Positions 3,967 through 8,633 of a stretch of 10,765 nt of DNA are shown here, in pieces; the stretch's first letter is position 1; each line of letters starts with the position of its first letter. The notes under the pieces are model-generated. The model was not told the origin of the DNA. It saw only the letters and a program-made list of their open reading frames with translations, and searched no databases. This DNA comes from Candidatus Helarchaeota ASGARD archaeon Hel_GB_B (lineage in GTDB: Archaea > Asgardarchaeota > Lokiarchaeia > Helarchaeales > HEL-GB-B): assembly GCA_005191425.1 (NCBI GenBank), contig SUPR01000105.1, forward strand, positions 1 through 10,765, written 5' to 3'. The translations under genes were made by a program, and so were the position numbers.

Positions 3967-5079
3967 TTATAAATATTTACACTTATTCTTAAGACACTCA
4001 TTTCTATCACAAACATAGTAAATGCTTTTTGGATCATTAAGAAATTTACACCAGGTTTTTAAATCGAATTTATGTGGATTTTTGAAATAATAATTACAAT
4101 AGAAACATATTTTCCAAGGTTCTTTATTATTTTCTGTAGAGTTTAAATAAAATCTAAAAAATGTGGCTATCTCTTCTATTGTAAATCCTTTATTTTGTAA
4201 ATATTTTAAAATAATTACTCTTTTATAATGACTCTTTTTTTCCGACTTAATTAATTGTATTGCTTTTTTAATACAATATGGTGAATCTTCTAATATATCC
4301 TTAATTTTTTTCATAGAAATGATCCAATTTCCTGAAAGATTTTCTCCCACATTTGGTATATTTAAATCATAATTTGTTTTCCAATATCTGTTTTTAAAAC
4401 CTGGATTTCTTGATTTGATATTTGGACTTAAAAAATTAAAAAACTGGAATTCGGGGATCGAGAAATTTTCGATTTTTAAGTTTGATTTGACCGAATCATC
4501 CAATATTTTAGAAATATCCCACTTTTTAATAGGAATAGAAAAATACTCTTCATTTTTAATTTTCCAATATGGCGAATATACCCATCTTATTAGTTTAGGA
4601 TATTCTGTCATATCTAGGTCAACGCCAATTTTATAATCTATACTGTCATATTGATAATTGTGAAACAAATATTTTTTGGACTTCTTCCAGCCTGACTTTT
4701 GTGGAAATAGTTCCTCAAAAACCTTTTTAAATCGCATTGGGTTAATTTCATCGTTAATGTATTGCATAGCGTGAATTCCTACCCCTGAAATTTTCCAAAA
4801 GAAATTATAATCCTGGTTTTTCTCCTTCCAGTTTTCCCAAAATTCTAATATAATTTTTAAAGAAAGTTCTCTTGAAATATTTGCAGAAATAATTTCACTA
4901 TCAATAACAAAATAAGTATCTTTTCCAGTAGTAGTCCTGAAAAATGGACGTGTGAAATCAATCAATGAGAAATCATCAAACCATGATGTAATTTTTTCTC
5001 GTCCATCTACTAATGTTGCATTAGCAAATGCATCTGCTTTAATCATTGAATATTCATTTACTTTTCTAATTTGTTCCAT
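3967..5079 (-). CDS. AEP-superfamily primase/primase-polymerase catalytic domain fused to a PriL-like C-terminal (putative 4Fe-4S) domain
   Basis: Motif I YFVIDSE (D60, E62); motif II KISGVGIH (H103); motif III GVD (D154) followed by PKLIRWVYSPYWK. The C-terminus PYC(269)...SHYKRVIILKYLQNKGFTIEEIATFF...WC(344)...VC(357)...C(362)...C(367) matches the PriL/p58 C-terminal pattern. Confidence 0.8.
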   Translation of the reverse strand: MEQIRKVNEYSMIKADAFANATLVDGREKITSWFDDFSLIDFTRPFFRTTTGKDTYFVIDSEIISANISRELSLKIILEFWENWKEKNQDYNFFWKISGVGIHAMQYINDEINPMRFKKVFEELFPQKSGWKKSKKYLFHNYQYDSIDYKIGVDLDMTEYPKLIRWVYSPYWKIKNEEYFSIPIKKWDISKILDDSVKSNLKIENFSIPEFQFFNFLSPNIKSRNPGFKNRYWKTNYDLNIPNVGENLSGNWIISMKKIKDILEDSPYCIKKAIQLIKSEKKSHYKRVIILKYLQNKGFTIEEIATFFRFYLNSTENNKEPWKICFYCNYYFKNPHKFDLKTWCKFLNDPKSIYYVCDRNECLKNKCKYL

Positions 5080-6255: not shown

Positions 6256-6999
6256 TCATTGTTTACCAAAATAATAGTCTAATTTTCTTATATTTTTCTC
6301 TTTTTTATTATTTCCGTCATCAAGAAAATACAATACTTTTTTATATGAACGAGATGGATGTTTGATAAGTTGATATTCAATGTGGTTATCAAATGTAATT
6401 ATTCGGACAATTATATTTGGATAATGCTGGCATGATTTTCCACCAGCAGGTTTATAATTGGAATTTAACGCCACATAATTAGTAGCAATAACAATTTTTT
6501 TTCTAACAGATGCTAATCGCTTTAATGTCCCCATAATTTCAATCATATGTTGTAAATCTTCGGGCGCTAAATTTGGTTCGGGGACTATGCCAGAAACTAA
6601 AACTAATTTTGCATTATTTACTGTAGTAATTTCTTCTAGTGAATTTGTAATAATTTCATGAAGGTGTGGAAAAATGAACGCTCGAGAAATAAAAATATTT
6701 TTTAAAACTCGAGTTGGACTAAGTCCAATTGAAATAGATTTTCTACCAATAATATATGGATTGAAAATATTTTGTGCGTCCACGAATATAACTTTGCTAT
6801 TCAAGCCACCATGACTTATTGGTAATTGTGCTGTTACTGCTAAGCTCCGCAGAATATCTGCTGTTAGACTAGGCGAATCGTATAACATATAAAACAGCCC
6901 TTTTTCAAATCCACCTAAAAGTTCATCAAGTGGTTTTATACCACTGATTAATTTCTCCTGCTCTAATTGCTTTTTATAGTATTTCGATGCATCTAACAT
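6256..6999 (-). CDS. RadA/Rad51 paralog, predicted ATPase-inactive, lacking the N-terminal HhH domain
   Basis: Collinear with the RadA core: ISGIKPLDELLGG, LAVTAQLPISHGGLNSKVIFVD, VLKNIFISRAF, IATN, KPAGGK, LIKHP. Walker A position reads YDSPSLTAD, the catalytic DTE reads DAQ, and Walker B reads LVLVSG. Confidence 0.85.
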   Translation of the reverse strand: MLDASKYYKKQLEQEKLISGIKPLDELLGGFEKGLFYMLYDSPSLTADILRSLAVTAQLPISHGGLNSKVIFVDAQNIFNPYIIGRKSISIGLSPTRVLKNIFISRAFIFPHLHEIITNSLEEITTVNNAKLVLVSGIVPEPNLAPEDLQHMIEIMGTLKRLASVRKKIVIATNYVALNSNYKPAGGKSCQHYPNIIVRIITFDNHIEYQLIKHPSRSYKKVLYFLDDGNNKKEKNIRKLDYYFGKQ

Positions 7000-7319
7000 T
7001 ATTTTTCATTGACCAAATTATTATTACCTTTAAATGAATAAAGAATACTTCTAATAAAAATATTTTAAGTTTATACAGAGATATATACAAATAAAAACAT
7101 AATAATAATGAATTTATTTCCTGACTTTTAGAAAAATTTATTAATATCATAAATTTTCTAGTTAAGAGAACTGATAAATAAAGAGATTTTTAAAAATAAA
7201 TATGATAAAAGAGTTAATTCAAAAAAATTTTAATTTTTTCAATTTGATCAAAAAATATTTTTAAGATAAGGATTTATTATAAAAAAAGCTGTTATTCATT
7301 TTTAGTATAGGTGTTTTTA

Positions 7320-8633
7320 TTGCTAGGAGACATTAGCGATGAGGAAACTAATAAATTAATAGCATTAGTTTCAGAAAATGTAAGAAAAAATTTAATGGGG
7401 AGAAATGTTGTCGAGTCTAAATTATTCCCCGTTTCTCATTATATTCATACTGCTACATATATTTTATATGACCAAGCATATCAATATAATATCACAAAAG
7501 AATTAGCGAAAAAGGTTAAACCTGAAGAAATTGGCCGGAGATCTAAAACTCTCGGTTCTCCAATTAACCAGCTTGCTATGAATTCGTTTGTAATGTTATA
7601 TTTACATGGCAGAGCTCAAGTTATCCATGATAATATTTATAAAAAGTCTCATTCTGGTGCACAAACAGTTGTTGAGCCTGAAGAAAAGAAAAAACAGACT
7701 AAATTTATTCTAGATTTCTGGCGTCGAATGATCCCTAATTATCGAAATGATGGAAAATTAACTGCTGAAGATAAGAAAATCCAATTCTTATCAAACAAGA
7801 ATATCGAAGATTTAAAAGATGATATGATTGCTATTAATAACGATAATCTCGATATAATTAAAAAATTAAAAAGAATAATGGCTGAACTCACTATATATAA
7901 CTTTATTTTTCAAGGCGAATGTAGGGCCGGAATATTCGAATCGGGCCCCTATTATTTTGAAGATAACCCCGATCCACTTATCTTTAAAGAATTTCAATAC
8001 CTTTATACTGGTGATAATATGTTTGGAATAGATGTTTCAGAATATTTACAATTCCATAAAATCTCAAAAACTGCACCTATTCCAAATGTAATTTTTGGGA
8101 TGACTTTAGACCATACTCAGATAAAGAAACTTGAATTTAATGATTGGGGTACCTTATTTATAGAGCCTACAGAATTTTCTCCATATATTAAATCTATTGG
8201 AATTTGGACTAAAGAATTAATACACCCAAAAGATATGCGTTATCCTGATAAATTAGGACAATTAAATCCTTTAAATATACAAATTTTCGATGAATTGTCC
8301 TCTTTTGCAAACCAAGCAACTAAAGAATTATATATCAAATTTTCTAAAATGAATTATACTGAAAAATTAATGCTCGGTACTAATTTATATGCAAATTTTA
8401 TGGCATTATTTGCTATTTTTGGTGGAATTGAAAACGAATTTTCCTGGACCTGGCCATATGAGTATGCGAGAAATGAACCATTTAAAACTAATTTGTTAAA
8501 TAAGGACGAAATAACTCGTTATATAAAAAAACTCGAACATTTTCCAAATGGTGCGCATCCATTTCTTACAAGGTTATTCAGACGTAAGAAAATTCACAAA
8601 ATCGATCCAATGTACTATTTTCTTCAAAATTAA
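7320..8633 (+). CDS. Hypothetical soluble protein (about 437-440 aa)
   Basis: Long uninterrupted ORF with globular composition. AGGTG at 7309-7313 sits 6 nt before TTG 7320, so TTG is preferred over GTG 7311. No recognisable family; enzyme-like segments ESKLFPVS, GECRAGIFESGPY and FNDWGT. Confidence 0.75.
   Translation: MLGDISDEETNKLIALVSENVRKNLMGRNVVESKLFPVSHYIHTATYILYDQAYQYNITKELAKKVKPEEIGRRSKTLGSPINQLAMNSFVMLYLHGRAQVIHDNIYKKSHSGAQTVVEPEEKKKQTKFILDFWRRMIPNYRNDGKLTAEDKKIQFLSNKNIEDLKDDMIAINNDNLDIIKKLKRIMAELTIYNFIFQGECRAGIFESGPYYFEDNPDPLIFKEFQYLYTGDNMFGIDVSEYLQFHKISKTAPIPNVIFGMTLDHTQIKKLEFNDWGTLFIEPTEFSPYIKSIGIWTKELIHPKDMRYPDKLGQLNPLNIQIFDELSSFANQATKELYIKFSKMNYTEKLMLGTNLYANFMALFAIFGGIENEFSWTWPYEYARNEPFKTNLLNKDEITRYIKKLEHFPNGAHPFLTRLFRRKKIHKIDPMYYFLQN

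Follow-up and report, generated by a model that had tools for sequence, protein, structure and literature searches.

The gene at positions 6256–6999 on the minus strand of the window analyzed here, a stretch of 10,765 nucleotides (contig SUPR01000105.1) from the Asgard archaeon Candidatus Helarchaeota Hel_GB_B, probably encodes iRadA, a catalytically dead RadA-like subunit of a predicted PolB2 translesion complex made up of PolB2, iRadA, and a PPB2 trimer; we put the probability of this reading at about three in four. The window protein (P0001; host genome, G000; second genome of the same genus, G004) is a member of this known family, in a setting of dispersed gene order, and not a new kind of paralog. 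Inactivated RadA-family proteins were described by Makarova, Krupovic, and Koonin in 2014 (PMC4104785) in predicted operons with PolB2 and a helical protein of ∼90 residues (arCOG07300). The names iRadA (arCOG04294, arCOG08101, and arCOG07763; PMC4104785, PMC11791011) and PPB2 (arCOG07300) were given in 2025 by Timinskas, Timinskas, and Venclovas (PMC11791011), who modeled a PolB2:iRadA:PPB2×3 heteropentamer with one iRadA per complex. In their models, a PolB2 loop mimicking the RadA/Rad51 oligomerization motif binds iRadA, and many iRadA proteins were found to carry a C-terminal PCNA-binding motif, usually in place of one on PolB2. Their tables include operons from Lokiarchaeota and Heimdallarchaeota and a PCNA:iRadA model for one Lokiarchaeon. 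PolB2 is active in vitro by itself (PMC11791011, discussion), and the function of iRadA has so far been deduced from comparative genomics and AlphaFold models only. A preliminary description of this DNA had interpreted the gene as a pseudo-enzyme paralog of RadA; the pseudo-enzyme part stands, whereas the existing description of the family as iRadA had been missed.

A RadA core without ATPase motifs

The coding sequence is intact and specifies 247 residues plus a stop, corresponding to a RadA/Rad51 core that lacks the HhH domain. An in-frame TGA at 7006–7008 (minus strand), two codons 5′ of the ATG, bounds the open reading frame, so that translation can start only at the Met on the 6999 side or at a downstream one. 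In the same-genus ortholog and in genome G005, too, the first start codon encodes the Met of the N-terminal motif (see below). A longer N terminus, already rejected in the preliminary description because of the TGA, and any other start were ruled out by the stop and this first-start analysis. Residues 17 to 177 matched Pfam Rad51 above its cut-off (E 4.9e-14), and the closest solved relative was P. furiosus RadA (1pzn; E 2.6e-15). An AF2 model of P0001 was obtained with a pLDDT of 92.5 and a pTM of 0.87, and its top Foldseek matches were RAD51/RadA cores (TM ∼0.8). When compared with curated models for RadA, RadB, Rad51, and Dmc1, P0001 scored far below every cut-off, reaching 58–60 bits with RadA models (cut-offs 259–361) and 30.9 bits with the RadB model TIGR02237 (cut-off 172). 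A profile of the family matched RadA at 1.5e-40 and RadB at 2.8e-16, with RAD51D, XRCC3, RAD51B, and RAD51C likewise much farther away than RadA.

Alignment of P0001 by BLASTP with one RadA of the host genome located the losses at the ATPase site. The degenerate P-loop (residues 40–48; 6856–6882, minus strand) is one residue shorter than that of RadA and holds no G-K-T/S; with one gap, Y-D-S-P-S-L-T-A lies opposite G-A-F-K-S-G-K-T of host RadA. Gln takes the place of the catalytic Glu in V-D-A-Q-N (6769–6783, minus strand; host RadA, I-D-S-E-G), and Ser that of the Walker B Asp in L-V-L-V-S-G (6589–6606, minus strand; host RadA, L-L-I-I-D-S), followed by a Gly that is invariant across the family. 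Relative to host RadA, L1 has lost 7 residues and L2 has lost 6. These replacements and deletions, together with the missing HhH domain, had all been recognized in the preliminary description and are borne out by the alignment. Five close homologs (72–99% identity), from Helarchaeota or Lokiarchaeota-type metagenome-assembled genomes, share every motif loss, and the start M-L-D-A-x-K-Y-Y-K-K and the C-terminal K-L-D-Y-Y-F are invariant among them as well. The losses also hold in ∼90 distant relatives, consistent with a conserved pseudo-enzyme derived from RadA. When columns were ranked by information content in a 54-sequence family alignment (247 positions), the degenerate P-loop and the position of the catalytic Glu ranked low. 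Following the published AlphaFold-Multimer models, iRadA is predicted to hydrolyze no ATP. P0001 as a RadA recombinase was ruled out by the absent HhH domain, the lost Walker A and B motifs, the L1 and L2 deletions, and the sub-cut-off scores. Orthology to RadB, aRadC, or a RAD51 paralog was excluded by the model scores, the profile comparison, the tree (see below), and the lack of a Walker A motif, in agreement with the distinction from RadB and aRadC drawn earlier.

Two other surfaces are retained. The equivalent of the F-x-x-A acceptor site, N-x-F-N-P-Y ... L-x-x-I-x-x-S-R-A-F, spans residues 77–108 (6676–6771, minus strand), and N77, F79, P81, L99, I102, R106, and F108 all hold ranks from 3 to 24 among the 247 positions in the 54-sequence alignment. 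We take these residues to be those lining the F-x-x-A pocket of RAD51, as seen in the BRC4-RAD51 structure 1N0W and in work on humanised RadA (HumRadA). By this ranking, no surface of iRadA is better conserved than the acceptor site, which matches the published docking model for the PolB2 loop. At the other end of the protein, a PIP-box-like tail, I-R-K-L-D-Y-Y-F (6268–6291, minus strand), follows a variable Lys-rich linker. The tail does not contain the canonical Gln of the PIP box Q-x-x-[LIM]-x-x-[FYW]-[FYWLIM]; L240, D241, and an aromatic residue at position 243 (F/Y/W) are highly ranked across the family alignment. The same pattern is found in tails of clamp partners encoded by the host genome, namely Fen1 (Q-K-R-I-D-H-Y-I), RNase HII (Q-R-K-I-D-T-F-I), and PolB (K-S-T-L-D-K-W-M). 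On this resemblance, the tail of iRadA is a putative PCNA-binding motif.

Loss of every catalytic motif would also be expected of a decaying, functionless duplicate of RadA, and a few extra copies elsewhere do carry in-frame stops (on contig C24 of G036 and C193 of G192). However, all seven genomes of the order, and most of those in several Asgard families, hold an intact open reading frame at 30–40% identity, the noncatalytic motifs are strongly conserved, and the AF2 model is confident, making this explanation most improbable. That P0001 itself is a pseudogene was ruled out by the intact open reading frame and conservation of the family. The copies with in-frame stops (G036:C24:37674-38303 and G192:C193:3067-3756) are second iRadA-like copies in some Lokiarchaeial genomes and appear to be decaying duplicates.

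Family membership and partner genes

P0001-type genes, defined as open reading frames of 240–310 codons scoring above 72 bits with the single-sequence query, were sought in 201 Asgard genomes. Genes of this type were present in 37/40 genomes of family f4, 39/43 of f10, and 3/3 of f16, while families other than those rich in them gave RadA-level matches only. Within the order, each of the seven genomes holds one ortholog (33–74% identity). A HMMER search against 1.8 billion representatives returned 118 matches below 1e-10; those of ∼250 residues all lack Walker A and by source name belong to Asgard archaea, Bathyarchaeota, and Nitrososphaeria. In a maximum-likelihood tree of 63 proteins (SH-aLRT support), all Walker-less proteins formed one clade with a support of 100, separate from the RadA clade, and the two short RadB-like genes of the host (L006 and L007) fell outside it. 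P0001 and its same-genus ortholog were sister, with a support of 93, to PPB2-linked iRadA proteins of the same order. A Nitrososphaeria-type subgroup of Walker-less proteins (P0073, P0084, P0088, P0118, P0120, P0151, and P0161) bears a Cys-rich, zinc-ribbon-like N-terminal extension where the N-terminal peg described below would be.

Gene order and co-distribution connect this clade to PPB2 and PolB2. PPB2, recognized by its M-G-R-T start and length of ∼90 residues, is the next gene in 14/35 Asgard P0001-type loci, among them all five loci from other genera of the same order, and a family B polymerase follows PPB2 in 8/35. Four genomes showed the complete iRadA-PPB2-PolB2 operon (L067–L070). 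A profile search for PPB2 gave nearly the same family-level distribution as that of the P0001-type gene: both are present in f4, f5, f10, f16, and f24, and both are missing from f6, f7, f8 (0/21), f11, f17–f20, and f23. In f15, f25, and f29 (and weakly in f22), PPB2 was matched and the P0001-type gene went undetected at the threshold of the single-sequence query. The PPB2- and PolB2-linked orthologs, the clade in the tree, and the co-distribution with PPB2 together identify P0001 as iRadA.

Both partners are encoded in the host genome. The single PPB2 gene (L064; contig C151:477-764) starts M-G-R-T-V-P-T-F-R; it is adjoined by an acyl-CoA dehydrogenase gene, and the end of a convergent gene comes after it. 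The single PolB2-type polymerase (L031; C19:1-2026) has its N terminus cut off by the contig start; its motif C reads H-G-I-V-D-C, with the first Asp replaced, and the I-V-D variant is listed for PolB2 (PMC11791011). It contains the loop E-K-F-K-T-G-L-K-M-V-K-S-D-K-G-G, of the type F-K-T-G ... D-[KR]-G-G that is also found in other Asgard PolB2 proteins and that resembles F-K-T-A of host RadA. No PIP-like motif was found in the tail of the host PolB2, and its presence on iRadA instead agrees with the published either/or pattern; in this organism, iRadA rather than PolB2 thus carries the predicted clamp-binding motif.

P0001 is not in an operon with PPB2 or PolB2, the operon being typical of the family but not universal. 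In both genomes of the genus (G000 and G004), iRadA, PPB2, and PolB2 lie on three different contigs, and no genome of the order has PolB2 linked to iRadA-PPB2. Since the genes are unlinked in both genomes of the genus, the assignment of P0001 to a PolB2 mutasome is drawn from orthology and co-occurrence; given that orthology and the presence of both partners, the unlinked position is read as a derived gene order and not as exclusion from the complex. The operon has come apart in this Asgard order while all three genes are intact, and function is therefore independent of co-translation.

The N-terminal donor motif and a proposed arrangement

The first four residues, M1-L-D-A4 (6988–6999, minus strand), correspond to the F-x-x-A donor (polymerization) motif of RadA; the initiator Met stands where RadA has Phe. 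Alignments with the RadA linker begin at residue 3–4 of P0001 in general. In that with 1pzn, residue 3 lies opposite RadA residue 99, which places M1 on F97 of F-M-R-A; in BLASTP with host RadA, L2 lies opposite residue 88, so that M1 corresponds to F87 of F-I-S-A. Homology of the N terminus to the RadA polymerization motif, as first proposed from the letters of the sequence, is therefore upheld. Conservation of the motif was assessed among Asgard-type representatives no more than 50% identical to one another, with the offset counted back from a G-x-x-x-L-D anchor. A hydrophobic residue at position 1 and Ala, Gly, or Ser at position 4 occurred at the RadA-equivalent offset in 21/30 representatives, as compared to 0–25% at 18 control offsets. 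Position 1 in the 21 is Phe in 7, the initiator Met in 7, and Tyr, Ile, Leu, or Val in the remainder. Among Walker-A-bearing RadA-type representatives, Met occupied donor position 1 in 0/24 and Phe in 15/24. Met-first forms (M-L-D-A, M-I-T-A, M-R-P-A, and M-Q-W-A) occur in at least three separate tree clades; the start is M-x-F-[DN]-S-G in Lokiarchaeial orthologs and M-N-S-A in G005, and in family f2 the motif F-[TI]-E-A comes ∼10 residues into the protein. Methionine aminopeptidase leaves the initiator Met in place before a large second residue; as every Met-first form has such a residue there (L, I, R, Q, or N), its Met should be retained. The searchable text and supplements of the two iRadA papers (PMC4104785, PMC11791011) describe only loss of the N-terminal domain (NTD) and do not mention a donor motif; the motif [F/M]-x-x-[A/G] at the extreme N terminus of iRadA thus seems unreported and goes beyond the published description.

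Such a peg could serve a regulator of RadA filaments that acts without PolB2, capping, nucleating, or inhibiting them through M-x-x-A in the manner of BRC repeats or RAD51 paralogs, as the preliminary description had suggested. The conservation of the donor motif at the right offset and its invariance in close homologs fit this role, as do the separation of iRadA from PolB2 and PPB2 in the genus, the four full-length RadA paralogs of the host genome, and the filament capping reported for NTD-less paralogs (PMC7618403). However, orthologs reside in PPB2/PolB2 operons, the phyletic pattern tracks that of PPB2, and the PIP tail and conserved acceptor pocket are accounted for by the mutasome model. 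In addition, a clear peg was not seen in the Bathyarchaeal/Nitrososphaerial branch, where core and tail are kept, which indicates that the peg is not the core function of the family. Because of the ortholog operons, and because the acceptor surface is given to the PolB2 loop in the published models, a stand-alone role is disfavored and is considered improbable. The peg might alternatively mediate self-association or auto-inhibition, filling either its own pocket or that of a second iRadA molecule until F-K-T-G of PolB2 displaces it. Donor and acceptor elements are indeed combined in one protein, the competing PolB2 motif is nearer to the RadA consensus, and residues 1–10 were modeled with fair confidence (pLDDT 79). 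This reading is nonetheless unlikely, as the published models hold one iRadA per complex and the ATP-mediated interface between cores that stabilizes RadA polymers has been destroyed. Beside self-association, the peg as a purely structural remnant is a further alternative.

With P0001 taken as the iRadA subunit of a PolB2 complex, the pieces can be arranged as follows. As in the published models (PMC11791011), the PolB2 loop would plug into the acceptor pocket of iRadA in the way that neighboring RadA protomers are joined, and the MGRT arm of PPB2 would be inserted between PolB2 and iRadA. The tail of iRadA would anchor the complex to PCNA where a primer end has stalled, making iRadA an ATP-independent scaffold that, with PPB2, holds PolB2 through F-K-T-G. 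This leaves the M-L-D-A peg free, and from its sequence it could dock the complex on the tip of a RadA filament by entering a RadA-type acceptor pocket. In RAD51 filaments, the linker of a protomer, with F86, engages the neighbor on the 5′ side, and the XRCC3 complex caps the 5′ end, where the terminal RAD51 offers its linker to XRCC3 (PMC7618403). If RAD51 polarity applies, an iRadA with a peg and no NTD would join the 3′ tip of a RadA filament with its own pocket facing 3′, the side on which docking of PolB2 is predicted. This 3′ tip would, on a gapped template, lie against the primer end and PCNA. Plugging of the peg into RadA would thus fit the polarity of RAD51 filaments, and iRadA can tentatively be pictured as a two-sided adaptor, with its peg in the free pocket at the 3′ tip of a RadA filament on the template strand, its own pocket holding F-K-T-G of PolB2, and its tail holding PCNA; we regard this arrangement as possible but rather doubtful. 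Were it true, PolB2 would be delivered or licensed at a stalled primer end beside a RadA filament, and the parallel to Pol V would be complete. A peptide of ∼10 residues that includes the peg also offers a handle on a possible coupling of archaeal translesion synthesis to RadA filaments, comparable to that of Pol V to RecA.

P0001 shares with published iRadA proteins the RadA core without NTD, the dead ATPase site, iRadA-PPB2-PolB2 operons among its orthologs, the retained acceptor site, an oligomerization-like PolB2 loop, and the placement of the PCNA-binding motif, putative in P0001, on iRadA instead of PolB2. It differs in the distribution of the three genes over three contigs in this genus, in the order-wide unlinking of PolB2, and in the N-terminal donor motif, whose Phe position is taken by the initiator Met. 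The predicted complex is reminiscent of Pol V, in which a recombinase-family protein is likewise a subunit of a damage-induced translesion polymerase and is bound via a mimic of the oligomerization motif. In contrast, the RecA subunit of Pol V is an active, ATP-requiring recombinase from the 3′ tip of a filament, whereas iRadA is a dedicated dead paralog that bears the predicted clamp-binding motif itself. Accessory proteins of the RadB/XRCC2/Rad55 type are also short RecA-fold proteins without NTD and without recombinase function, but they retain Walker A and have neither linker nor peg. They cap filaments, and iRadA, having a donor motif but lacking the NTD, would be expected at the other (3′) end. 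As in BRCA2, a short F-x-x-A peptide outside the recombinase would be able to fill the acceptor pocket, although BRC repeats are isolated peptides in a large scaffold and the iRadA peg is a retained RadA linker on a RadA-fold body.

Upstream block, RadA complement, and neighboring genes

A block composed of T-C-T-C-T and a TATA-like box (7054–7081, minus strand) lies 82 nt 5′ of the iRadA ATG and is a candidate promoter or regulator site. It matches the same-genus ortholog at 13/14 bases and at equal distance from the ATG, and a near-identical 14-mer, matched by 2/200 shuffles, is found 5′ of the unlinked PolB2 gene of G004. The pentamer stands upstream of 8/8 readable iRadA, PPB2, and PolB2 genes of the order (including L063, L071, and L064), compared with 7% of host open reading frames that have it 50–160 nt upstream; the composite occurs upstream of 0.27%. 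The upstream region of PPB2 showed no significant match to the block. A genome-wide regulon was discarded, as the loose pattern picks 26 unrelated host genes that form no coherent set. The block, a pattern found post hoc, is therefore offered as a lead for co-regulation and may be a site for a shared regulator.

The host genome contains four full-length RadA-type genes (HhH domain and Walker A) and two short RadB-like genes (L001–L004, L006, and L007, on contigs C147, C182, C11, C106, and C113), a RadA copy number that is provisional because genome contamination is estimated at 4.9%. Two of the four RadA genes are close copies; a divergent one is marked by F-K-T-G, by G-P-E-G-T-G-K-S, and by a tail that is long and basic. 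The divergent gene lies on C106 with one RadB-like gene, an XPD-like helicase fragment, and Fen1.

The neighbors of iRadA in the window are genes for two membrane proteins, a primase-like gene, and a gene for a 440-residue protein. iRadA is the sole gene common to the window and the G004 locus, so the primase-like neighbor is not a conserved partner. A damage-tolerance module formed with this gene (3967–5079) was ruled out by its absence from the G004 locus and by the GatD and CooC-like neighbors seen in other families. The primase-like product (3967–5079, minus strand; 370 residues) gives a weak match to the primase large subunit and has a Cys-rich C terminus. The 440-residue protein (7311–8633, plus strand), encoded divergently to iRadA, has no Pfam match and is not encoded next to iRadA in G004; its C terminus, I-D-P-M-Y-Y-F-L-Q-N, fits the clamp-binding pattern [ILM]-x-x-[FY]-[FL].
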